Positions 1 to 10,155 of a stretch of DNA of 10,155 nucleotides are shown here, piece by piece. The notes under the pieces were generated by a model. That model did no database searches, had not been told where the DNA came from, and was given only the letters and a program-made list of their open reading frames with translations. The stretch is from Minisyncoccia bacterium (GTDB lineage: Bacteria > Patescibacteriota > Minisyncoccia > Phycocordibacterales > UBA918). Each line of letters starts with the position of its first letter. Position 1 is the stretch's first letter. Both the position numbers and the translations under genes were made by a program. The stretch covers positions 1 through 10,155 of the forward strand of contig CAXRCZ010000009.1 of assembly GCA_964229335.1 (NCBI GenBank). Direction: 5' to 3'.

Positions 1-7
1 GGCTGAT

Positions 8-83
8 TGGTGCGCGATGAGAGACTTGAACTCCCGACCTTCTCGGTGTAAACGAGCTGCTCTACCAACTGAGCTAATCGCGC
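8..83 (-). tRNA. tRNA-Val (anticodon TAC)
   Basis: Reverse complement reads GCGCGAT-TA-GCTCAGTTGGTAGAGC-A-GCTCG-TTTACAC-CGAGA-AGGTC-GGGAG-TTCAAGT-CTCTC-ATCGCGC-A-CCA: full cloverleaf, 76 nt, CCA encoded. Confidence 0.97.
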
Positions 84-104
84 ATGTTTAAATATGTGCG
101 AGAG

Positions 105-132
105 AGTATACAACAAAACCAGACTCATGCAA
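105..132 (-). promoter_or_regulatory. sigma70-type promoter for tRNA-Val
   Basis: Minus strand TTGCAT (132-127), 16 nt spacer, TATACT (110-105), about 20 nt upstream of the tRNA 5' end. Confidence 0.6.
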
Positions 133-157
133 CAAATTTCAAACTTAATTAGCCTAT

Positions 158-188
158 AAAAAGGAAAGACCGGTCATATAGACCGGTC
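158..188 (-). terminator. intrinsic terminator after the small basic ORF
   Basis: GACCGGTC-N5-GACCGGTC (168-188; each arm self-palindromic) followed on the minus strand by TTTCCTTTTT; begins 7 nt after the stop at 195-197. Confidence 0.65.
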
Positions 189-194
189 CGTGCC

Positions 195-347
195 CTAAAA
201 ATTTTTCCGAGCGCGAGAAGGGTTGCGACGATGGCCTTCTTCTCGTTCCGCTTTTGCTTGGGTAACATGCCCAGCGGATTTCCTCTTTTTCCTTTCCTTG
301 GCTCTTTCAACAAAAAGCGAAGTGCCAGGAATCAGGTCATGGAACAT
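195..347 (-). CDS. small basic hypothetical protein (50 aa, MFHDLIPGTS...RARKNF)
   Basis: ATG at 347 preceded by GGAGA (356-352); candidate promoter TTGCGT(411-406)-17-TATAAA(388-383); terminator downstream; K/R-rich. No family recognised. Confidence 0.55.
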   Translation of the reverse strand: MFHDLIPGTSLFVERAKERKKRKSAGHVTQAKAEREEGHRRNPSRARKNF

Positions 348-444
348 AAAATCTCCATTGTTGAACAAAAGTGTCAAACTTCTTTATAGTCGGTTTTTGC
401 AATCAACGCAAGTGAATACTGCTTTATAAAAGTCTTTACCAAGG

Positions 445-450
445 TATACT
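445..450 (+). promoter_or_regulatory. -10 element (TATACT), probably leaderless acylphosphatase transcript
   Basis: TATACT 6 nt upstream of ATG 457, no SD. Confidence 0.6.
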
Positions 451-456
451 GGCTCC

Positions 457-732
457 ATGCAAGAAATAGTTTGTCGGGTTGTAGGGAAGGTACAAGGTGT
501 GATGTATCGTACCTATGTGCAAGACGCTGCCACAAAATTAGAGCTAACTAGCTACGTAGAAAATTGTGCTGACGGTACTGTGGCGGTGGTGGCGCAAGGG
601 ATACCTGATACTCTAAAGGAACTGGTTGAATATCTGCATGAAGGTTCATCTCTTTCGAGAGTAGAGGAAGTGTCAGTCGAATGGCAGACGCCAAAACAGC
701 TCTTCGAAGAATTTTCTATCAAATACGTATAA
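457..732 (+). CDS. acyP: acylphosphatase
   Basis: 91 aa with V-x-G-K-V-Q-G-V-x-Y-R phosphate loop and YVEN-x-x-DGTV motif of the acylphosphatase family. Confidence 0.93.
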   Translation: MQEIVCRVVGKVQGVMYRTYVQDAATKLELTSYVENCADGTVAVVAQGIPDTLKELVEYLHEGSSLSRVEEVSVEWQTPKQLFEEFSIKYV

Positions 733-734
733 CT

Positions 735-1472
735 ATGAATGAGCCTCAAATAATTTTTGAAGACGATGATGTATTGGTGCTCGACAAACCGATAGGATGG
801 CTAGTCCATGAAGATGGTAAGGGTGATGGGCCAACGGTGGTTGAGTGGTTCCTGCGACATTGCCCAGCAGCCGAAGAGGTAGGTGAGATTGGTTATAGTC
901 CGGAGGGCACAGAACTGAATCGCTCTGGAGTAGTGCACCGATTAGATAGAGAAACCTCCGGTGTGCTTATTATGGCTAAGACGCAATCGGCACATGTTCA
1001 CTTAAAAAAACGATTCAAAGACCGCTTAGTTCACAAAGAATATCGAGCACTAGTGTACGGCAGGATGAAAGAACGGTGGGGAACCATCAGCGCTCCAATT
1101 GGGAGAAGTGGCAAAGACGCCAGACAACGCTCAGCGCTGCCGGGTGCAAAAGGCACGTTGCGCGAGGCAGTCACTGAATACGAATCTATAAAAGAGGGGG
1201 AATACAACGGAGAAATCTTTTCTTTTCTACGGCTTGTTCCCAAGACCGGTCGGACGCACCAATTGCGAGTTCACTTACGGTATTTAGATAGACCGATTGT
1301 CGGCGATCAGCTATATGCAGAGTATAAAATACATGATTCCAATAATTTAAACTTGGATAGAATGGCCCTGCATGCAGAATCACTCGAACTCACGTTACCA
1401 AGTGGTGAGAAACAAGTATTCAAGACTCCGCTTCCTGATGAATTGCAAGCAGCAGTAGCCAAACTGAAATAG
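735..1472 (+). CDS. RluA/RluD-family rRNA pseudouridine synthase (no S4 domain)
   Basis: Motifs VLDKPxGWLVH, VVHRLDRETSG (catalytic Asp), TGRTHQLRVH, PIVGDQLY, ALHA. Start placed at ATG 735 (MNEPQII), 2 nt after the acyP stop. Confidence 0.93.
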   Translation: MNEPQIIFEDDDVLVLDKPIGWLVHEDGKGDGPTVVEWFLRHCPAAEEVGEIGYSPEGTELNRSGVVHRLDRETSGVLIMAKTQSAHVHLKKRFKDRLVHKEYRALVYGRMKERWGTISAPIGRSGKDARQRSALPGAKGTLREAVTEYESIKEGEYNGEIFSFLRLVPKTGRTHQLRVHLRYLDRPIVGDQLYAEYKIHDSNNLNLDRMALHAESLELTLPSGEKQVFKTPLPDELQAAVAKLK

Positions 1473-1483
1473 CTAAACAAGCG

Positions 1484-1512
1484 TTGCAAGCGGGGATAGT
1501 ATGTGGTAGATT
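1484..1512 (+). promoter_or_regulatory. sigma70 promoter for rplS
   Basis: TTGCAA (1484-1489), 17 nt spacer, TAGATT (1507-1512) with an extended TG at 1504-1505. Confidence 0.65.
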
Positions 1513-1545
1513 GTGCCGCACTTATAGACACAACACTATATTTAT

Positions 1546-2193
1546 ATGAAAGCAGCAATGGCAGGGGTGAATGTATCACCCGTCAACATGGAGGAACGAA
1601 AGAATCTTGGTATCAAAGCCGGAGATACTATTCGTGTTCACCAAAAAATTCAAGATAAAGGCAAGACCCGAATTCAGATATTCGAAGGTATTGTACTAGC
1701 CCGCAAACACGGTACTGAACCAGGAGCTACCTTTACTGTACGAAAGGTAACTAGTGGGGTAGGGGTAGAAAAAATCTTCCCACTGTACTCACCACTAATC
1801 GACAAACTAGAAATCGTGAAGCGAGCTAAGGTGCGTCGAGCCAAGCTATACTACATCCGCGAAAAAGTAGCCCGTGAAATCAAACGACAAATGCGTCGCA
1901 TGAGTCTCGTTTCAATGTCTACTGAATCAGGTGCCGAAGTGGCTGCCCGCGAAGCTGAAGAAGCTAAGAAGGCGGAAGAAGCCGCAGCGCAAGAGGCTGA
2001 AGCCAAAGCCGCAGAGGAAGCAGCTAAGGCAGAAGAGACTACGGCCGAAGAGCCAGCAACAGAAACTACTGCAGAAGAAGCAGAAGCACCGGAAGCTACT
2101 GAAGAAAATACAGAGGCTGAGGTCAGAGAAGAAGCTCCAGCAGCTGGACCAGAACCTTCAGAAGAGACAACCGAAGAAGAAAAGAAAGACTAA
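1546..2193 (+). CDS. rplS: 50S ribosomal protein L19 with acidic low-complexity C-terminal extension
   Basis: [42 protein letters not shown] and [11 protein letters not shown] are canonical L19 motifs, followed by about 90 Glu/Ala/Thr/Pro-rich residues. Start may instead be ATG 1558. Confidence 0.97.
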
Positions 2194-2194
2194 A

Positions 2195-2223
2195 CAAAAA
2201 CCGGCCGCAAAGGCCGGTTTTTG
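2195..2223 (+). terminator. intrinsic terminator after rplS (potentially bidirectional)
   Basis: CAAAAACCGGCC-GCAAA-GGCCGGTTTTTG: perfect stem with T-tract. Confidence 0.88.
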
Positions 2224-2236
2224 CTATACTTTTCTC

Positions 2237-3262
2237 ATGGAAGGATTTCCTAAAGACACGTCAAAAAACAAAAAAGAACTCAGTTTAGTTCTAGCTGCGG
2301 CTTTAGCTGCCTCAGTACCAAGTCAAGTTGAGGATGGAGGTATCGAAGCCACTACTTACACTAGTGAAGCCCTTGAGAAAGTTCCACAAGTTAGTGTTAT
2401 AGAGCTTGAGACGGGAGAAAAGATTTACGCTCACGAAGACGAGACCACTACCGAAATTATGGAGTATCTCTCCGGTCGCAGTGAACTAACCGAAGCAGAT
2501 ATTGCCGCTGGGTTACGCAAAGATTTTTTCAATGCCTTAAAGAGAGCTGGTGAAGATATAACTAGTGCCGAAATCAGGGACTATCTTTACAGTATTGATA
2601 GTAGAGAAAAGGTCACAGACTTTTACGAAAAATATTCACAAGTATATACAGAACCTTTAAAAGAATTTAACGGCGACACTGAGGCCTATGCCAATCACCG
2701 GTTCCAAGAGCAAACAGAGATAGAACAATCAATTCGTGAGAAGATAGATGATGGTCTTTACCAGGCATTGTGGGAAATCTATATACGAGGTGGAGCCCCA
2801 AGAATTGAATGGGTGGACACATCAGAAGAAAGAAGTTTGCGAAGAAATCAAAGATATGGAGGCAGCAACTATTACAAAACTCGTGACTCCCATGATAATG
2901 AGGACCCGACCATGTATCTTGATCGTTCATATAAATCAGACAGAGCGTTGGCTGCTTTTTTAGATGAGTTAGCACATAGTTTTAGTCATTTTAATAATCC
3001 AGAACAATTTTTTACTGGTATAGCTCAAATAGAGAAATATAAGAGAGGTAAAGATCTTACTGATCCAGTAGTGAAGAATAAAATCATTCAACTTTATAAT
3101 GAACCAGGTACAGAAGAATATTTGGCACATCAAGTCATCGCACCGATATTATTTGAGTTCATTGGAAAGTATCACCCTTCAATGCAAAAATATTTACAAC
3201 GATATGAAGAAAATAGAGAGGAATTGAGACAGTTGCAAAGCGAAGATAAACCTATAGAATGA
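2237..3262 (+). CDS. hypothetical protein, 341 aa, N-terminal hydrophobic segment and zincin-like xExxH motif
   Basis: ATG 2237 follows TGcTATACT by 6 nt; hydrophobic LSLVLAAALAASVP near the N-terminus; AFLDELAHSF and PGTEEYLAH motifs. The ORF-track extension back to 1931 is a shadow frame of the rplS tail. Confidence 0.8.
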   Translation: MEGFPKDTSKNKKELSLVLAAALAASVPSQVEDGGIEATTYTSEALEKVPQVSVIELETGEKIYAHEDETTTEIMEYLSGRSELTEADIAAGLRKDFFNALKRAGEDITSAEIRDYLYSIDSREKVTDFYEKYSQVYTEPLKEFNGDTEAYANHRFQEQTEIEQSIREKIDDGLYQALWEIYIRGGAPRIEWVDTSEERSLRRNQRYGGSNYYKTRDSHDNEDPTMYLDRSYKSDRALAAFLDELAHSFSHFNNPEQFFTGIAQIEKYKRGKDLTDPVVKNKIIQLYNEPGTEEYLAHQVIAPILFEFIGKYHPSMQKYLQRYEENREELRQLQSEDKPIE

Positions 3263-3280
3263 GACCCACCTCAAATATAT

Positions 3281-3364
3281 GTCCACGTGGCGGAATTGGT
3301 AGACGCGCTACCTTGAGGGGGTAGTGGGAGTATTCCCGTGCTGGTTCAACTCCAGTCGTGGACA
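3281..3364 (+). tRNA. tRNA-Leu (anticodon GAG)
   Basis: GTCCACG acceptor stem pairing with CGTGGAC; D-arm GCGGAATTGGTAGACGC; CTACC-TTGAGGG-GGTAG anticodon arm; long variable arm; GCTGG-TTCAACT-CCAGT T-arm; discriminator A; CCA not encoded (followed by CAA). Confidence 0.96.
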
Positions 3365-3370
3365 CAAGAA

Positions 3371-3399
3371 AAAATGAGCACCGATACAGTGCTCATTTT
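3371..3399 (+). terminator. intrinsic terminator after tRNA-Leu
   Basis: AAAATGAGCAC-CGATACA-GTGCTCATTTT: perfect 11-bp stem. Confidence 0.8.
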
Positions 3400-3417
3400 G
3401 CGTTATACTGGATTAAT

Positions 3418-3879
3418 ATGAAGAAGCGTCCAACTGAAAAAGATTTTTCATACGGAGTCGTTCCAGTTCTCGATACTCCAGCTGGGTGGAGAGTACTTCT
3501 AGTACACCAACTTTCTCATAAAGGTGGCAACCACCGATTTTGGATTTTCCCCAAAGGTCATGCCGAGGGGGACGAGACACCGCACCAAGCTGCCAAGCGA
3601 GAACTGCAAGAAGAAACCGGCATTATAGAGGTCACTCTGGAAGAAAAAACTCAGTTTGAAGTGCGGTATAACTTTCGGCACGAAGAGAAAATAATTAAAA
3701 AGACAGTAATTTATTATCTGGGCTACTGTCGAGATAGCCAGACAAAACTCACGCAACCAGAAGAAATTATTGAAATGAAATGGTGCGACTTCACTACTGC
3801 TGAAAAACTCCTATCACACAAAAATTCTAAGAAAGTGCTAAAGCAAGCGATGGAGTTTTTGAAAGCGGCACATACTTGA
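3418..3879 (+). CDS. Nudix hydrolase, Ap4A hydrolase (bis(5'-nucleosyl)-tetraphosphatase)-like
   Basis: Perfect Nudix box G-HAEGD-E-TPHQAAK-RELQEETGI preceded by WIFPKG and SYGVVP. Start at ATG 3418 (MKKRPTEK) after TATACT at 3404-3409; the longer ORF call overlaps the tRNA and its terminator. Confidence 0.92.
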   Translation: MKKRPTEKDFSYGVVPVLDTPAGWRVLLVHQLSHKGGNHRFWIFPKGHAEGDETPHQAAKRELQEETGIIEVTLEEKTQFEVRYNFRHEEKIIKKTVIYYLGYCRDSQTKLTQPEEIIEMKWCDFTTAEKLLSHKNSKKVLKQAMEFLKAAHT

Positions 3880-3949
3880 TATTTCAGCTTAGGTGTGGCA
3901 CGGTGAACTTTGGAAGTACTGCACAATCAACTCAAACGGGAGAATCACC

Positions 3950-4516
3950 ATGCTTCGTATTTTTGCTATTACTCTGGCACTCGCGCTGGGAACGTTCGCT
4001 GCGCCCGCAAAGGCGCAGGCGACCACTATCGTGTGTTCGGATATCGAGGATTTGAAAAAAGTTCTCGAGGAAGTCGATCGACCAGAAAAGCTCAATGCGT
4101 ACTGGAAATTCCCATACACGCAGAGACAAATGAGTCGCCACTTCTGCCGCCGCAGAGGAGTGACTCGCCCTACTGAGTTGCACTGGTGGGGCTGGCACGA
4201 GAATAGTTCAGGGGTACTCTTTCCAATCATTCAAGCCACTCCGGTAGAGCAAAGAATGAGGGCTAGGCGGGCGCTCCAGCGGGAGTTTTATCCCGACTTT
4301 GCTTACTCGAGTGAAGATTTCATCTTCACTCGGTGTGGCTATCGGACAGCAGGATTGGGGCGCCAAATCAATCGCTGCATCATGCCACGCAATTGCAGAT
4401 CCCAGCGGGCTTACGCACTCGGCACAGGTTACGGTCTAAGGCGACCGCTACCTGATTACGTCAGGTTTCGTCCGGACTGTGGCAGCCGGAGAGGTCCTGG
4501 GGAGTACATTGATTAA
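3950..4516 (+). CDS. secreted hypothetical protein (188 aa, signal peptide, 6 Cys, Arg-rich)
   Basis: SD GGGAGA at 3938-3943 before ATG 3950; Sec signal MLRIFAITLALALGTFAAPAKA/QA; own terminator. No family recognised. Confidence 0.72.
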   Translation: MLRIFAITLALALGTFAAPAKAQATTIVCSDIEDLKKVLEEVDRPEKLNAYWKFPYTQRQMSRHFCRRRGVTRPTELHWWGWHENSSGVLFPIIQATPVEQRMRARRALQREFYPDFAYSSEDFIFTRCGYRTAGLGRQINRCIMPRNCRSQRAYALGTGYGLRRPLPDYVRFRPDCGSRRGPGEYID

Positions 4517-4551
4517 ACCGTGGTAGTGAGTTTGGAACATTGCCGAACAAC

Positions 4552-4589
4552 AAAAAGCACCGGGGGCGCGAAGCGTCCCCGGTTTTGTA
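4552..4589. terminator. intrinsic terminator between convergent genes
   Basis: ACCGGGGGCGC-GAA-GCGTCCCCGGT (4559-4583) with a T-rich tail on + and an A-tract at 4552-4556; sits between stops at 4516 (+) and 4591 (-). Confidence 0.8.
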
Positions 4590-4590
4590 T

Positions 4591-5007
4591 TTATAGGAAA
4601 AATAATCCAATCACAATTGCTCCTATCCAGCTGAGAGAGGAAACAGCTCCAGATAAGAGGAGCTTTTTTTGTACCCTAGAGGGTAATGATTGATAGGGAG
4701 TAGAGGTAGCATGACGAGATAACTGCCCGATAGCAATTGCATTAATAACTAACACTACTACAAAAAACATCTTGAGCCAGTACTCAGGTTGGGTAGAAAA
4801 GTAATCCCAAGCTGGTGCTACTAAAAAGATACCCGTCACAATCATTCCCAATAGTCCAAGCCAAATTAACCGGTGCGTCCAGGTGATGAAGCGAAGAGAA
4901 ATGGTTGCTCGTTTGCCTCTAAAATATTGCACACCTTGATGATCAGCTATCAAAATAACGCACACTGTAGCAACTAAGATAGCTAAATGAATACTTACCA
5001 ATGCCAT
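4591..5007 (-). CDS. 4-TM membrane protein (CopD/DUF2214/DUF6644-like helical bundle)
   Basis: Four hydrophobic segments, N-terminal His, GLLGMIVTGIFL and YWLKM motifs; start 3 nt after the TspO stop. Family assignment is tentative. Confidence 0.75.
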   Translation of the reverse strand: MALVSIHLAILVATVCVILIADHQGVQYFRGKRATISLRFITWTHRLIWLGLLGMIVTGIFLVAPAWDYFSTQPEYWLKMFFVVVLVINAIAIGQLSRHATSTPYQSLPSRVQKKLLLSGAVSSLSWIGAIVIGLFFL

Positions 5008-5010
5008 AGA

Positions 5011-5406
5011 TTACCAATTCAAATAGGTTATAGAGAGTTGTAAAACTGTCGCAAACCCAACCCACGCTAGATAGGGTAGGTTAAGATACGCTACCCACGG
5101 GTGGTACGGATGGATGACGATGAGTGCCCATACTAGTGTTCCAAGTACCAGCAAAATATCAATCGCTGCCAAGAGGTTGTTTTGCAAACCAAATTGAATT
5201 GGAGAAAAGGCCAGATTGAATAGTAGATTCAGAGCAAAGGGAAGAACCACTAACCAAGGCAGACCGCCTTTAATAGCTTGCCAAAATACGTAGCCAAAGG
5301 TAATAGCAATGATGGTGTAAAGTACACTCCAGACTGGTCCAAAGAGCCAAGTCGGTGGAGCAAAAAAAGGTTTTTCGAGTGCTTGATACCAGGCCGCTTC
5401 ATTCAT
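5011..5406 (-). CDS. tspO: TspO/MBR tryptophan-rich sensory protein
   Basis: WYQALEKPFFAPPTWLFGPVWSVLY, LNLLFN..SPIQFG and LPYLAWVGFATVL are TspO signature segments. Confidence 0.95.
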   Translation of the reverse strand: MNEAAWYQALEKPFFAPPTWLFGPVWSVLYTIIAITFGYVFWQAIKGGLPWLVVLPFALNLLFNLAFSPIQFGLQNNLLAAIDILLVLGTLVWALIVIHPYHPWVAYLNLPYLAWVGFATVLQLSITYLNW

Positions 5407-5420
5407 ATTTTTAGTATAAC

Positions 5421-6818
5421 TTACTTAGCTGTATCTTTGGCTTTTTTATACGCTTCGCGCGCCCAATGATAACTATCTTTTTGATTTACTAATGGTGATG
5501 GATAATCGCTGGCAAGCTCACTAAAGTCCTGGGTCTTACCATCAGTCAGTTTTTCAGCTGGTACATCTTTGAGTTCAGACACCCATTTTTTTATAAATTC
5601 TGCATCTGGGTCATATTTTTCGGCTTGAGTGTAGGGGTTAAAAATTCGTAATGGTCTTGGGTCGGCACCGGTTGAAGCGCTCCATTGCCACCCGCCATTA
5701 TTTTGGGCCGGGTCATAGTCAATCAAATGCTGTGCAAAATATTTTTCACCCCACTGCCAATTGATAAGAAGATTTTTGGTGAGATATGAAGCTACTATCA
5801 TACGCACTCGGTTGTGCATCCAGCCAATAGTATTGAGTTGTCGCATGCCAGCATCTACCATCGGCACACCAGTCTTGCCTTCAGACCAAGCAGCAAATTG
5901 TTTTTCATCATTTACCCAATCAATGTTATTGCCCCAACCATAGAATGATTCCTCGAAGATATGAGGATTATGGAGAGCGATATAGTAATAAAAATCTCGC
6001 CAGTACAATTCGCTAATGAATTGCTCGGTATTGGTGGACTGCTCTTTAACCATTTCATAGGTTTCGCGAATGGATATTGTGCCAAACTTATGATGAGCAG
6101 ATAGGGTAGAGGTTCCATCAATTGCTGGTAGGTTGCGGTCGGTGCGGTAGTTTTTTAAAAACTGATTTTGTCGTAATAATTTCAACCCTTCCTCTCGACC
6201 GCCGTGAAGTAATAAGTCCTCATTTTTTTCTGGCGTGTAATCCTTAAGAGAAACAGTAGGAGTTTCGAGAGAGCCGGAGAAATAATTTGAAAAATTATTT
6301 CTCCGCGGCGCAGGTACATCGTATTCAGCGCGAGCTTTTTTCATGAACGGTGTAAAGACGCTGTACAACTTCTCTTGGTTGGTACGAATTTTATCTATTG
6401 GCGATAGGGTGTAGTCTCGAAACGAACAGAATTCCACGTCACGCTTTTTACACATTTCTGCAATCATCTCATCTCGCGTACGCGCAAACGGGGTGTAGTC
6501 TTCATTCAAAAATACCGCGTCTATATCGTCTTTCTTAATGAGTGAATCGATTATTTCAACGGGTTGTCCGCTGCAAACAAATAGTTGTCGATTGCGACGG
6601 CGCAGAGCATCATCAAGTTCTTGGAGAGAACGCACCATAAATGAAAACGCCGGCAAACTGAAATATTCGTTTTTCTTTTTATCGACTTGCTGCGAGTCAA
6701 AGATAAATAGGGGAACTACCGTCTCAGCCTGATCCAGCGCTGCCAACAAGCCAGTGTTGTCCTCCAATCGCAAGTCTCTTCTAAAGATAAATACTGCTTT
6801 TTTATAGGGCTTATCCAT
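5421..6818 (-). CDS. phrB: deoxyribodipyrimidine (CPD) photolyase, cryptochrome/photolyase family
   Basis: FRRDLRLEDN, TSTLSAHHKFGTISIR, FISELYWRDFY, GKTGVPMVDAGMRQL, GWMHNRVRMIVAS, LIDYD..NNGGWQW, RIFNP..QAEKYDP. Start placed at ATG 6818, 6 nt after TGcTACTCT. Confidence 0.96.
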   Translation of the reverse strand: MDKPYKKAVFIFRRDLRLEDNTGLLAALDQAETVVPLFIFDSQQVDKKKNEYFSLPAFSFMVRSLQELDDALRRRNRQLFVCSGQPVEIIDSLIKKDDIDAVFLNEDYTPFARTRDEMIAEMCKKRDVEFCSFRDYTLSPIDKIRTNQEKLYSVFTPFMKKARAEYDVPAPRRNNFSNYFSGSLETPTVSLKDYTPEKNEDLLLHGGREEGLKLLRQNQFLKNYRTDRNLPAIDGTSTLSAHHKFGTISIRETYEMVKEQSTNTEQFISELYWRDFYYYIALHNPHIFEESFYGWGNNIDWVNDEKQFAAWSEGKTGVPMVDAGMRQLNTIGWMHNRVRMIVASYLTKNLLINWQWGEKYFAQHLIDYDPAQNNGGWQWSASTGADPRPLRIFNPYTQAEKYDPDAEFIKKWVSELKDVPAEKLTDGKTQDFSELASDYPSPLVNQKDSYHWAREAYKKAKDTAK

Positions 6819-6868
6819 GTGGTGAGAGTAGCACACCGAGGTAACTTTTGGTATTTGCAGCCTCCATA

Positions 6869-8047
6869 CTACTGATACTGGATATAGACGGGCTTGGGAG
6901 TAAATTGCAACATCTCTTTGGCCGTAAATATTCCGGTGCTTGGTGGTTTCAAGTCATTCTTATAAAAGACTTTTATCCCCGCAAATTGTACTGGTTCAGG
7001 CACAATCACATTTTTGTAAGTGCCGGTTTTTAGGTCTTTTGAACCCCAGCCATCCATATGCATAACCACTTGGACTTCTGGTCGAGGCTTAATGTCTTGG
7101 TAGTCAGTGACCATGTTTTGGGTAAAGCGGTGTACCACTAATACTTTTGGTGGCAGCTGATGTTCATTCACTATATCTGCGAGCCAGTCAATGGTGTAAT
7201 TGATATCTTCAGCACTAAAGGTGCCGACTACTAATCCAGGCGCATGACCACTTTTCATAGAGAATTCAGGATCGATTCCTAAGTGCACATCCGGTTCTTT
7301 GAGGTATTCAGTAAACTTTGGCAATTCTGCTTCAAGAGTACTCAAGCCGACCTGAAGATCGAGGAACATAATCCCATCAACTTCCTTGGCAATGGCATGA
7401 GCTTTCTCAACCTCTGTCTTTGGCATTACTGCTCGGTACATACCGTCGGCTCCAGCGTCTGCTTGCGCCACCATCGCAATATAATGAATCGCCGGTATCG
7501 CCGGAGTGGCTGGATCAGCCGCTTCCCATTCTGCCACGGTCTGCTGTAGGTGCGGAATAAGTTGTTCTTTATCAAGTTCACCAAGAATACCCATATACCG
7601 AGAATAGAGATTGCCGTAGTAGGCGACTATGCGATTGAAGGGAAGTAGTGCACCGCCATGAGGGTAGGGGTTTTGTGGTGGCCAGTTCTGACCGCGAACA
7701 GTTGTGTTGCTGTTATCACTTTCGACTAACTCATATTTAAGTTTTGTGGTGGTACCAGCTTCAGTTTGAATGGTTACTTCTTGCGCGAGCTTTTCAGGTG
7801 AAAAACCGGCTAGTGAGAGAAGTCGCCGGTTGTATTCTGTTTTGTCTAGTGGTTGAGGCCAACCCGTTGCCGCTTCTTTTTGCTCCTCACTCTGTGTGGA
7901 AGTAGCCGAAGCGGTAGCATTCTCGGTAGAAAAAGCAGTGAGTGCTGGTAACCCAACAACAGTCAACCAGATACACAGTGCTGTCAAAATTACAGCTATT
8001 GCTACTAGTATTCCGTTGTGCCAAGTTAATTTCAATACCAAAATCAT
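6869..8047 (-). CDS. membrane-anchored/secreted conserved hypothetical protein, possible TIM-barrel hydrolase-like domain
   Basis: 392-aa ORF with an N-terminal TM helix, S/T/A linker, then a globular domain (RIVAYYG, LDLQVG, VHLGIDPEF, LVVHRFT, HMDGWG). Start uncertain (ATG 8047 or TTG 8035). Confidence 0.8.
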   Translation of the reverse strand: MILVLKLTWHNGILVAIAVILTALCIWLTVVGLPALTAFSTENATASATSTQSEEQKEAATGWPQPLDKTEYNRRLLSLAGFSPEKLAQEVTIQTEAGTTTKLKYELVESDNSNTTVRGQNWPPQNPYPHGGALLPFNRIVAYYGNLYSRYMGILGELDKEQLIPHLQQTVAEWEAADPATPAIPAIHYIAMVAQADAGADGMYRAVMPKTEVEKAHAIAKEVDGIMFLDLQVGLSTLEAELPKFTEYLKEPDVHLGIDPEFSMKSGHAPGLVVGTFSAEDINYTIDWLADIVNEHQLPPKVLVVHRFTQNMVTDYQDIKPRPEVQVVMHMDGWGSKDLKTGTYKNVIVPEPVQFAGIKVFYKNDLKPPSTGIFTAKEMLQFTPKPVYIQYQ

Positions 8048-8302
8048 AGCACGAATTTAGGTCTCAAAATCAGTCACTAGCGTTAGTCTAAATACTTTTT
8101 TGCGATATCAATATAATTTTTCTGTTTCTCCTTATCAAATTTTGATGGGCGACGTGGTAGAGGTGAGACAGTTTGAGAAACTGTCGCAAGGCTCATTGAG
8201 ATATATTGAAGAATGAAAAATATCCAATGAGTAGACAGCTTCTGTAAGAAGGTTAGAACTGTGTTTGAAAATAGAAACGACACTACTATTTATATTCCAG
8301 TT

Positions 8303-8749
8303 CTAGTCTAGTTCTTCAATCAGTTTTTTCATCTCTGCAATCTCTCGTTCTTGCGCCGCAATGATTTCATCAGCTAATTCTCTTACACGTGGATCTTCAA
8401 TTTGAGCACGACTGCTGGTGAGGATGGCGATTGAGTGATGCGGAATCATTGCCTCCATGTAATCGACATCGTCAACCAATGCTTGGCTTCGGACAAGGAA
8501 AAGTGAGAGTGCAAAAAGCGCCATGCTCCCACCCACAATCATCTGGTTTGTCTTTCTGTCTGTGTACATGTGGCGCATAAACCACAACATGACAAGAGCC
8601 ATGACAGCAGTCATAATCAGATTCATATATAAACGTGTTTCACTAAAAAATACATGACCGAATTCGTAGGTATGCAAGTACATCAGCATGTACATAAGCA
8701 CTGATGAGGTGATAATCATTTGAAAGAATGTTTTGTATGAAGAATGCAT
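8303..8749 (-). CDS. DUF305 (ferritin-like) membrane protein
   Basis: Three Met-rich TM segments, then DVDYMEAMIPHHSIAI...ELADEIIAAQEREIAEM, the DUF305 HH signature. Confidence 0.88.
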   Translation of the reverse strand: MHSSYKTFFQMIITSSVLMYMLMYLHTYEFGHVFFSETRLYMNLIMTAVMALVMLWFMRHMYTDRKTNQMIVGGSMALFALSLFLVRSQALVDDVDYMEAMIPHHSIAILTSSRAQIEDPRVRELADEIIAAQEREIAEMKKLIEELD

Positions 8750-8776
8750 GTTGGGTAGTTAGATACTAATTACTTT

Positions 8777-8819
8777 CAGCTTAGCAAATTACAGAAGTAC
8801 ATTGAAATTTTGCTATAAT
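8777..8819. promoter_or_regulatory. back-to-back extended -10 promoters of the DUF305 locus
   Basis: Plus strand TGcTATAAT (8811-8819), 7 nt before ATG 8827; minus strand TGcTAAGCT (8785-8777) toward 8749. Confidence 0.6.
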
Positions 8820-8826
8820 TATTTGT

Positions 8827-9216
8827 ATGAAAATACTGGCAGTCAGTGTTGTTGCAGTAGTTTTTGGCGCAATGTTCGCGAGTCTATTTCATATGAGTAT
8901 GGATATGGACACGATGGCAACTGGTGGTGACTGCATGTATATGTCCCACGCAGAAACCTGGTGCCCGATGAATGCCACAGATCATATCGGGGCGTGGCAG
9001 GCAGTTTTTCAAGCCGTTGCTCCTTCAGTCATGCTTCTGCTAGTAACAGCTAGTGCACTCGCTCTGGTTGCAGCTGCTGCTCCGAACCTCATCACATCTA
9101 GACCGAGTACTATACGGATACTACAAAGACAGTTGCGAGAGCGAACCTATCTTTTCTCTTATCGACCACTGCAAGAACTGTTTGCTAGAGGCATTCTTCA
9201 CCCCAAACTATTTTAG
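8827..9216 (+). CDS. 2-TM Met/His/Cys-rich membrane protein, candidate metal-sensing leader ORF
   Basis: Perfect extended -10 upstream; TM1 (3-21), loop 22-53 with 7 Met, 3 His, 2 Cys, TM2 (about 68-85), basic tail ending LQELFARGILHPKLF. Confidence 0.8.
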   Translation: MKILAVSVVAVVFGAMFASLFHMSMDMDTMATGGDCMYMSHAETWCPMNATDHIGAWQAVFQAVAPSVMLLLVTASALALVAAAAPNLITSRPSTIRILQRQLRERTYLFSYRPLQELFARGILHPKLF

Positions 9217-9243
9217 TGAATAGGCATATCTATTATTCACTAA
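9213..9243 (+). promoter_or_regulatory. intergenic hairpin linking the upstream stop codon to the DUF305 initiation region
   Basis: TTAGTGAATA (9213-9222) and TATTCACTAA (9234-9243): perfect 10-bp inverted repeat, no T-tract after it. Confidence 0.6.
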
Positions 9244-9252
9244 CTTAAAGAC

Positions 9253-9867
9253 ATGAAAAACAATATAATTTTAGTAGCTGTAATTGCTCTTCTTATCGGA
9301 GGAATTGGTGGCTATATTATCGCAGGTAAGAATGATAAAAGTGAAGAAACTGTACCAAGGGGTATGCATCGCATGCCAGACGGTACGCTCATGAGTAATG
9401 GTTCTGGAATGAATGAGATGGACCACTCTGCCATGATGGTTTCAAGCGAGCGTGAATTTGTTGCGGGAATGATCCCACACCACCAAGAGGCAGTTGATAC
9501 TGCTAATGAAGTATTGGCTAGAGGTGGAACCAATGAACAGATAGTTGTTCTGGCAAACGAGATAATTGCCGCACAAGAAACAGAAATAGCTCTCTTAAAA
9601 GAATGGCACCAAGAGTGGTATGGGGTAGCATATACTCCTGATGGTTCATATCAACCCATGATGCGTAACCTGACAAATCTCTCTGGTGTAGAGTTGGATC
9701 GAACATTCCTCGAAGACATGATTCCTCATCACAAGGGAGCGATTATGATGGCGCAGAGTGTCAGACCATACATTGAACACCAAGAAATTACTGATATGGC
9801 AGACGCCATTATGGAAACACAGTCTGCCGAAATCGAGTTAATGCAAGATTTGTTGACCAAACTGTAG
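9253..9867 (+). CDS. DUF305 / CopM-like extracytoplasmic metal (copper)-binding protein
   Basis: N-terminal TM anchor, GMHRMPDGTLM and MNEMDHSAMM Met/His segments, and two DUF305 repeats (FVAGMIPHHQEAV...AQETEI; FLEDMIPHHKGAI...TQSAEI). Confidence 0.9.
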   Translation: MKNNIILVAVIALLIGGIGGYIIAGKNDKSEETVPRGMHRMPDGTLMSNGSGMNEMDHSAMMVSSEREFVAGMIPHHQEAVDTANEVLARGGTNEQIVVLANEIIAAQETEIALLKEWHQEWYGVAYTPDGSYQPMMRNLTNLSGVELDRTFLEDMIPHHKGAIMMAQSVRPYIEHQEITDMADAIMETQSAEIELMQDLLTKL

Positions 9868-9888
9868 TTCCAGTAACGTGTCACAGAG

Positions 9889-9916
9889 ACAAAAGACTCC
9901 CAATGGGAGTTTTTGT
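9889..9916. terminator. intrinsic terminator after the DUF305 gene (potentially bidirectional)
   Basis: ACAAAAGACTCCC-AAT-GGGAGTTTTTGT stem with T-tracts on both strands. Confidence 0.82.
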
Positions 9917-9920
9917 TTAT

Positions 9921-10155
9921 AGGGCGGCGAGAGTTCCAGTTTCTCACTAAGGGTCTAAAATATCAGAACTGAGATATTCTTGTATATCTTCACCAATTGA
10001 AGATATTTTGCGCTGGGCATCTTTATGATTCCGCTCGAACCTATTTCCAAGCGAAGCTTGGATGAACAACGCTGGCCGCGCCGAGTGCGTGGTGAGGCTG
10101 TACCTCAACGTACGCATTCGCGTGCGTGGTAACGCTAATGCGCACCTCCTCCCGT
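9921..10155. other. hairpin-rich unassigned region, possible structured ncRNA (truncated by window edge)
   Basis: At least five consecutive stem-loops and a 9-nt direct repeat; no recognised RNA family; a partial minus-strand CDS cannot be excluded. Confidence 0.35.

Follow-up and report, generated by a model that had tools for sequence, protein, structure and literature searches.

What is the role of a 129-residue open reading frame (ORF) with two predicted transmembrane (TM) helices that stands directly in front of a copper gene? The question is raised by a locus on contig CAXRCZ010000009.1 of a Minisyncoccia bacterium (assembly GCA_964229335.1). We analyzed positions 1 to 10,155 of this contig, and the whole 10,155-nt stretch is called the window in the following. 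The ORF, referred to as the leader, precedes the gene of a CopM-family (DUF305) protein. Based on sequence comparison and on analogy with characterized systems, we consider it probable that the leader is a cis-acting arrest leader similar to CutF of Rhodobacter capsulatus, i.e., that copper on a Cys pair outside the membrane prolongs a ribosome stall and opens the next gene.

According to this model, the ribosome would stall at the last codons, on the conserved C-terminal tail of the leader, before the second TM helix (TM2) has fully entered the membrane. If copper is bound by the Cys pair on the outside, the stall would last longer and thereby open a hairpin that is predicted to mask the copM start. 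Other family members have a long spacer between leader and next gene; there, a terminator hairpin starting immediately 3' of the stop codon would be blocked by the same stall. That a stall would turn expression on is suggested by the detoxifying targets and by both RNA layouts, for each of which the presence of a ribosome corresponds to the on state.

Anatomy, conservation and genomic setting of the leader family

A preliminary description of the locus had read the ORF as a first TM helix (TM1), a loop rich in Met, His and Cys, and TM2, located 36 nt upstream of a DUF305 gene with no terminator in between. This is borne out. Based on hydropathy windows, the leader's loop comprises 45 residues with 2 Cys, 7 Met and 3 His, and 40 residues separate the end of TM2 from P126, the Pro of the tail. 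The coordinates yield a gap of 36 nt, the terminator scan lists no T-tailed terminator between leader and copM, and the DUF305 ORF (9253-9867) is identified as CopM (NCBIfam NF049983, 104.8 bits at a cut-off of 90; PF03713, E 6.9e-41). The preliminary description did not mention two features of the locus, the extended -10 box 5' of the leader ATG and the 11-bp hairpin starting at the stop codon (Table 1). The leader protein matches no NCBIfam family, no Pfam family at E<=1 and no solved structure. Window positions 8200-10155 show no Rfam match, and the region has no listed RNA holder.

Homologues of the leader are found in 18/36 same-genus genomes, in 65/401 genomes of the class and in 34/401 genomes of the phylum, 25 of the latter lying outside the class. 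From the 124 loci of this genome set, 117 ORFs were extracted, of which 115 were kept after removing 2 near-duplicates. A second, motif-first set contains loci drawn by the DNA pattern of the tail alone (121 metagenome and 2 viral-collection loci; 116 distinct ORF ends). Since the Cys scaffold is present in 73/74 complete motif-first ORFs, the tail motif marks this one leader family. Comparing 104 members with Pfam and NCBIfam gave scattered weak matches only (best E 0.004), and the matches of one member each to LpqS (E 0.08) and CopD (E 0.03) are taken as chance. The Atlas matches listed for the leader are all unnamed clusters, with Minisyncoccota as the commonest phylum, and tblastn of the leader against plasmid and phage collections gave no match. 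The tail pattern also matched two IMG/VR contigs (L160, L161) with a CopM-like or DsbA-like next gene, which are likely host DNA or otherwise a mobile element.

The anatomy typical of the family consists of TM1, a loop that holds two Cys (C-x9-C), TM2, a poorly conserved stretch of about 41 residues and the tail LFSxGIL[HN]PK[LI][FY] or one of its alternatives (see below). Among 104 aligned members, C36, C46, H53 and P126 are near-invariant. The 20 C-terminal residues form the most conserved part within 20 homologues of 42-80% identity, which also mark the leader ORF as more than a chance ORF. The expected concentration of conservation at the C-terminus is thus found, and it is a property of the peptide: in the 78 members with a GILxPK tail, all four codons are used for Gly122 and Pro126 and all six for Leu124 and Leu115. 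Given that third codon positions are free while the residues are fixed, the motif was selected as peptide and not as DNA, which rules out an RNA or DNA reason for its conservation. F119 and S120, neither of which was used for the class definition, are F in 72/78 and S in 61/78 of these members. At position 127, 74 of them have K, 3 have R and 1 has Q (partly circular, see below). Position 125 is occupied by H (53), N (22) or Q (3), such that H125, formerly regarded as a motif residue, is not conserved.

The suspected fixed distance between TM2 and the C-terminus is observed as well. The end of TM2 and the Pro are separated by a median of 41.5 residues (10-90% range 38.5-46, n=76), and the last Cys and the Pro by a median of 80. 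While the linker sequence is not conserved (per-column entropy of about 3.5 bits vs. 0.4 at F119), the linker length varies within narrow limits. In 101/103 members, Lys and Arg are more frequent after TM2 than in the loop, a charge bias according to which the loop faces outward and the tail remains inside. The pull exerted by a TM helix ends when the helix end and the peptidyl transferase center are about 45 residues apart (PMC9436324). Together with the TM2-to-tail distance, this suggests that TM2 is finishing its membrane insertion as the tail is made.

A spacing of C-x9-C is found in 47/76 GILxPK members, in 22/25 members with a WLxLxENSP tail (NSP type) and in 2/2 RAP members; a Cys spacing of 3 was never seen. 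The Met/His content of the loop varies among members. It is therefore the two Cys (plus H53), rather than the Met/His cluster, that form the conserved putative ligands. From the metal ligands originally proposed, the Cys part is retained and the Met/His cluster is not.

Next, we consider the genes behind the leaders. For 111 distinct next genes, Pfam assignment (E<=1e-3) gave 41 copper-named genes, 21 thiol-redox genes, 38 DUF1573 genes with or without rhodanese, 4 others and 7 without Pfam family. The copper-named genes encode CopM (16), DUF411 (12), HMA ATPases (4), HMA-DsbD_2-cupredoxin proteins (8) and a multicopper oxidase (1); DUF411 is named copG in a CueR-regulon table (PMC12341060). 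As controls, we used six other stretches of the same genome with 109 called genes, from which 9 mirror duplicates were dropped. Of the resulting 100 genes (threshold E<=1e-8), none is copper-named and one is DsbA. That is, the anticipated association with metal genes is present, in the form of copper or thiol-redox next genes. For the motif-first set, 95/102 next genes match the annotated next-gene set by BLAST, 91 of them in named classes, and 35/102 are DsbA, DsbD or AhpC-like. Loci newly found by the phylum search show next genes of the same classes in 18/24 cases. Where a leader genome has csoR, the gene lies within 5 kb of a leader in 14/25 genomes. The source assembly holds 5 leader copies, which precede CopM, DUF411 (twice), DsbA and a DUF7282 protein; genes further behind these copies resemble heavy-metal ATPases and a multicopper oxidase by eye.

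Two groups of next genes stand out. Single-domain DUF1573 genes with a conserved Cys-Met-Cys stretch and Met/His (L046, L059-L097) are the usual target of WLxLxENSP leaders (19/25) and are candidates for an undescribed exported copper chaperone. At L038, L039, L093 and L095, the next gene encodes an exported protein of about 205 residues without Pfam family, which is Cys-rich (CC, CCCxC clusters) and has a His-rich end.

Tail classes, predicted stall register and RNA output

Among the 115 members, 78 tails are of GIL[HN]PK type and 25 read WLxLxENSP. SPRAP-stop is found in 2 and EKRDP in 1, while the remaining 9 are of other types or broken. One SPRAP-stop locus, L024, was found via the scaffold alone (positions 5-99, E 2.8e-15) by a profile built without any RAP-type member. 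It is located 5' of a DUF305 gene and has a hairpin nearly as in the window. When aligned to the window leader, its S-P-R-A-P-stop is in register with H-P-K-L-F-stop. In total, we find SPRAP-stop on the leader scaffold at 2 loci, both upstream of DUF305 genes, and in 5 further proteins. This register pairs K127 with the RAP(P) Arg. It also predicts that F129 occupies the P site, in which case F119 would be located ten residues further up the tunnel. Given that homologous scaffolds end in register in the RAPP-like SPRAP-stop or in WLxLxENSP, the tail is likely an arrest module, for which the stall is predicted at F129/stop rather than at P126. The SecM-like GIRAGP register that had been proposed for GILHP is, by the same alignment, likely wrong.

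When a RAPP peptide has its RAP in the P site, the Arg is inserted into a pocket of the 23S rRNA (PMC10951233). Peptides that end in NAP-stop or NSP-stop are arrested at termination, the stop codon then occupying the A site (PMC10987492), as predicted here for the leader. A RAP-stop tail, having no A-site Pro, would have to stall in the same way. On the other hand, more than 3 residues follow the Pro in 31/103 members, such that a stop codon in the A site is not required throughout the family. The source data of PMC12992588 include a file of RAPP/RGPP upstream ORFs (uORFs) with 211 occurrences of SPRAP, among them a DUF2946 protein; behind RAPP uORFs, DUF305 genes show a 23-fold enrichment (710 vs. 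119). A likeness of the NSP class to MifM was ruled out on spacing (W-to-N distance of 6 vs. 8 in MifM).

A more general reading would be one membrane-anchored C-x9-C scaffold with interchangeable arrest modules, namely GIL[HN]PK[LI][FY], RAP-stop, WLxLxENSP and WxxxxEKRDP. Here, Lys would replace the Arg of RAPP, no A-site Pro would be needed, and the modules would act via two RNA switches, i.e., Shine-Dalgarno(SD)-independent masking of the start or a stop-proximal intrinsic terminator. We give this an even chance. A quick scaffold tree computed without the last 30+ residues (104 rows, 102 columns) shows 6 tail-label changes compared to a minimum of 3. Since its supported branches force only 1 change per class, the tree shows neither a repeated tail origin nor an order of the swaps. 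A W-x-EKRDP tail on the same scaffold was noted at three loci (L150, L152, L091). Several tails (L140, L147, L149, L155, L157) keep only the Trp and possibly form a decay or diversification series of the arrest motif. Among individual loci, L111 has lost its stop codon and reads into the hairpin, L122 has a frameshift upstream of its tail and in L095 a stop codon interrupts the ORF, which may reflect assembly errors or natural variants.

Concerning transcription, a -10 box with at least 5/6 matches is located 4-9 nt before the ATG for 46/101 leaders, compared to 8/105 next genes and 14/136 inner genes as background. A TG-extended box within 40 nt upstream is found for 38/100 leaders (1.7 in shuffles) and for 2/105 next genes. 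SD-like sites are present for 1/105 next genes and 4/136 inner genes; the 3' end of the 16S rRNA was not found in the assembly, so the anti-SD was not readable for SD scoring. The pattern of -10 boxes and the rarity of SD-like sites indicate that the leader is likely the first cistron of a leaderless mRNA that starts at the leader ORF. With SD-like sites nearly absent, the output of the leader is not SD masking.

The spacers between leader and next gene are retained: 95/105 measure 25-130 nt and 1 is shorter than 25 nt, compared to 200/420 gene pairs below 25 nt in the leader's own genome. In the window, the spacer hairpin has a predicted energy of -8.9 kcal/mol (9214-9255; z -3.3; 2/200 shuffles as stable), while a wider segment of 101 nt is not significant (z -0.6). 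Where the spacer measures at most 70 nt, folding predicts a hairpin anchored at the stop codon for 37/43 genome loci and 41/63 motif-first loci vs. 35/92 control genes. Where it is longer, 28/34 genome and 31/45 motif-first loci have a terminator-like hairpin whose start is no more than 30 nt away from the Pro codon, vs. 10/92 controls; among NSP-type long spacers, 6/20 have a hairpin of this kind. We also computed the predicted cost of opening the copM start region with a ribosome footprint on the leader. It drops from 6.0 to 2.1 kcal/mol for a footprint at P126 and from 6.9 to 1.9 kcal/mol at F129. A gain of at least 2 kcal/mol from the F129 footprint is found at 31/42 genome and 38/60 motif-first short-spacer loci vs. 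34/92 controls.

Known systems and rival readings

Among known systems, CutF (cutFOG operon; PMC9973294, bioRxiv 10.1101/2025.02.05.636593) is closest. Both CutF and the leader are the small first ORF of a copper-defence operon, with an export signal, an extracytoplasmic Cys motif, a conserved C-terminal tail, a stem-loop before the next start (predicted in the case of the leader) and a predicted logic in which a stall means on. CutF differs in its cleavable signal, its CxxxC motif, its PPP tail and a stem-loop that hides the SD. The leader, in contrast, has two TM helices, C-x9-C and a GIL[HN]PK[LI][FY] tail containing a single Pro; SD sites are nearly absent, and in members with a long spacer the output would be of terminator type. 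In terms of rules for CutF-like ORFs, the leader is shorter than 150 residues (129), starts with a hydrophobic segment as N-terminal export signal, has a same-strand next gene within 1000 nt (36-nt gap) and heads a metal-homeostasis operon. It has a single Pro (P126) instead of a PP motif within the last 15 residues. Such a PP motif was required in the CutF census (PMC9973294), and the RAPP/RGPP screen selected on RAPP/RGPP motifs (PMC12992588), such that neither filter would catch the main GILxPK class.

CruR (DUF2946, PF11162) of Bordetella pertussis (PMC9426467; arrest shown in PMC12992588) is likewise a uORF heading copper operons with a conserved Cys-to-tail spacing, and the leader's minority tail SPRAP-stop resembles SPRAPP tails in the RAPP uORF list (PMC12992588). 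The leader differs from CruR in that it has no CXXC, its main class lacks RAPP, no Rho match was found in this assembly and its targets suggest the opposite sign. PF11162 is not among the best 25 of the 37 Pfam families matched by 104 members at E<=0.1, and 0/151 class genomes match it (a positive control matched in 2/14 genomes). No RAPP tail was seen in 115 members, of which 2 end in RAP-stop. The initial view of a leader distinct in sequence from CruR/DUF2946 is thus supported. DUF2946 clusters are the nearest named ones by language-model features (0.85-0.86; 100-110/256 shared features), which is a lead only. Taken together, the leader is not a member of the DUF2946 family but likely works like CutF.

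RAPP/RGPP uORFs, e.g., DUF6153 of Streptomyces (PMC12992588), share with the leader their targets (DUF305, DsbA/thioredoxin, Cu proteins), the membrane targeting and conserved Cys/His. They are defined by RAPP/RGPP, and the main tail of the leader is absent from the searched text and supplements of PMC12992588, which left parts uncovered. The leader also shows four features of monitoring substrates (PMC10987492), i.e., it is a small uORF with a TM segment or signal, a conserved C-terminus and a spacer of more than 30 residues. Its TM2-to-tail spacer is narrow, as in MifM. Unlike MifM/SecM-type arrest peptides, it is not located upstream of sec or yidC genes, and the published SecM, MifM and VemP motifs listed in the accessible parts of PMC7897499 have no match in its tail. 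In the literature, motif strings returned unrelated papers only and topic searches no description of the family; the full protein lists of PMC9973294 and the bioRxiv supplements were outside this coverage.

We weighed the CutF-like reading against four others. The leader might be a small membrane protein of the usual kind, whose task, binding copper or associating with a transporter, starts after its release. The tail would then be a helix in the cytoplasm that serves partner binding or degradation, and the hairpin would reflect plain translational coupling. Two TM helices and a Met/His/Cys loop would indeed fit a metal buffer, the tail has no known arrest signature, and the window hairpin would be melted equally by a stalled ribosome and by one that terminates, such that the RNA alone does not require arrest. 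We still consider this unlikely. One copy per operon (5 within one genome) before unrelated genes speaks against it, as do the fixed TM2-to-tail distance across an unconserved linker and the in-register replacement of the tail by SPRAP-stop. Furthermore, the stop-proximal terminators of long-spacer members would cut the operon unless controlled. A promoter in the spacer (TAACTT at 9241-9246 or TATTAT at 9231-9236) that drives the next gene, with the leader ORF as an independent unit, is hardly to be expected. While TATTAT matches the -10 consensus in 5/6 positions and long-spacer members have terminator-like hairpins, TAACTT matches in 3/6 only, which is background. Family-wide, the number of next genes with a -10-like box in front does not exceed that in shuffles (11/50 vs. 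15.0, 11/55 vs. 18.3, 12/63 vs. 18.6 and 13/45 vs. 18.5), and the boxes show no spacing peak. The independent start at TAACTT that had been named as a possible objection is thus not seen.

The two remaining alternatives accept an arrest leader. It could sense disulfide formation or membrane insertion instead of copper, with C-x9-C as a substrate of DsbA/DsbD and a feedback on envelope redox similar to that of SecM on secretion. In line with this, the Cys pair and H53 are the only near-invariant loop residues, next genes are DsbA, DsbD or AhpC-like in 21/111 and 35/102 cases, and the CutF model itself invokes a pull generated by a disulfide (bioRxiv 2025.02.05.636593). Given 41/111 copper-named next genes, csoR close to the leader in 14/25 genomes and a window copy that has 7 loop Met and precedes CopM, we regard copper-independent sensing as rather improbable. 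A switch of opposite sign, in which a default stall keeps the operon on and copper releases it, would correspond to the action of CruR (PMC9426467), and terminator-like spacers exist in the leader family. CruR, however, acts through Rho, for which this assembly has no match, and the next genes mostly serve export, buffering or detoxification (HMA ATPase, multicopper oxidase, CopM, DUF411), which makes the opposite sign very unlikely.

Several observations weigh against the copper-sensing arrest leader itself. With regard to RNA structure, neither of the two spacer alignments (with 15 and 21 sequences) yields a consensus fold in RNAalifold. Top-10% placement in the cognate-arm test is clear only for the genome set (35/75), while the motif-first set is near the control (25/102 vs. 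18/100) and the window's own short-spacer group is weak (2/15). Over all spacer lengths, stop-anchored hairpins are predicted for 52/110 motif-first loci vs. 52/147 controls, and an anchoring of the helix to the motif rather than to the stop is not significant (slope 0.23, p 0.13). Moreover, the loci are kin and the controls stem from one genome, so that p-values are overstated. On the peptide side, the G, I, L, H, P and K columns defined the GILxPK class, such that their measured conservation is partly circular. The NSP-type members are not NSP-stop, as 2-8 residues follow their Pro. Furthermore, 9/115 members are outside the four tail classes (some being frameshifted or split pieces), and several members from the phylum search have degenerate tails. 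Finally, 59/111 next genes are thiol-redox or DUF1573 genes and not copper-named.

The window locus, its host and implications

The features of the window locus are collected in Table 1. A close paralogue of the divergent membrane protein listed there adjoins another leader operon (G000:C4:131844-132293; by eye). The last 141 bases of the window (10015-10155) are identical to one end of contig C12, likely due to an assembly overlap or repeat.

Table 1. Features of the window locus (positions are those of the window).
Feature	Position	Strand	Basis or remark
Leader ORF, 129 residues	8827..9216	+	member of an uncatalogued Patescibacteria family
CopM-family (DUF305) exported copper metallochaperone, predicted regulated gene	9253..9867	+	NCBIfam and Pfam
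Extended -10 box TG-n-TATAAT	8811..8819	+	perfect match, 7 nt 5' of the leader ATG
TM1 / signal-anchor, residues about 3-21	8833..8889	+	hydropathy window
Predicted outside loop, residues about 22-66, with C36-x9-C46 and H53; putative Cu/disulfide sensor	8890..9024	+	conservation, charge bias
TM2, residues about 67-85	9025..9081	+	hydropathy window
C-terminal motif L115-F129 (LxELFxxGILHPKLF), candidate arrest sequence	9169..9213	+	conservation, in-register SPRAP-stop swap
Motif codon P126	9202..9204	+	
Motif codon K127	9205..9207	+	
Motif codon F129	9211..9213	+	
11-bp hairpin	9213..9243	+	5' arm 9213-9223 holds the stop codon; 3' arm 9233-9243 ends 9 nt 5' of the copM ATG
Terminator-like hairpin 3' of copM, A-tract before, T-tract after, likely bidirectional	9891..9915	.	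listed on - strand (9910-9896); + strand reading by eye
Divergent membrane protein with half a DUF305/CopM domain	8303..8749	-	shares a 77-nt upstream region with the leader

Four of the five leader copies of the assembly are found within a metal island of about 26 kb (G000:C4:131800-158300), which is possibly mobile. By eye, it contains ZIP and CDF transporters, two heavy-metal ATPases, a multicopper oxidase, DUF305 genes as well as recombinase-like and DNA-methylase-like ORFs. Contig C7 of the same assembly (126,716 bases) matches its own reverse complement with 100% identity over its full length. This mirror-image assembly artefact probably inflates the contamination figure.

Profiles of CsoR, MerR, CopY and ArsR have no match in this assembly, in which EF-P and three response-regulator domains are present. 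CsoR is found in 139/401 class genomes and in 36/61 same-genus genomes. The idea that the leader replaces CsoR was ruled out, since CsoR is present in 25/64 leader genomes vs. 114/336 others (p 0.47). With CsoR being common in relatives, the leader would be an added layer of control and not a general replacement.

Known copper-sensing leaders were gathered via their RAPP/PP tails, and a family without these tails is invisible to such searches. If the tail described here stalls ribosomes, it is a new arrest motif. If the modular reading is true as well, the family would provide a new arrest chemistry together with a natural series on how RAPP-type motifs arise or are replaced. The pair of HPKLF-stop and SPRAP-stop on one scaffold makes it testable whether RAPP-like motifs are of shared or repeated origin and what can substitute for the Arg and the A-site Pro. 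For Patescibacteria, where regulation is hard to study, the leader, carried by five metal operons of this assembly, offers a concrete post-transcriptional regulatory mechanism.

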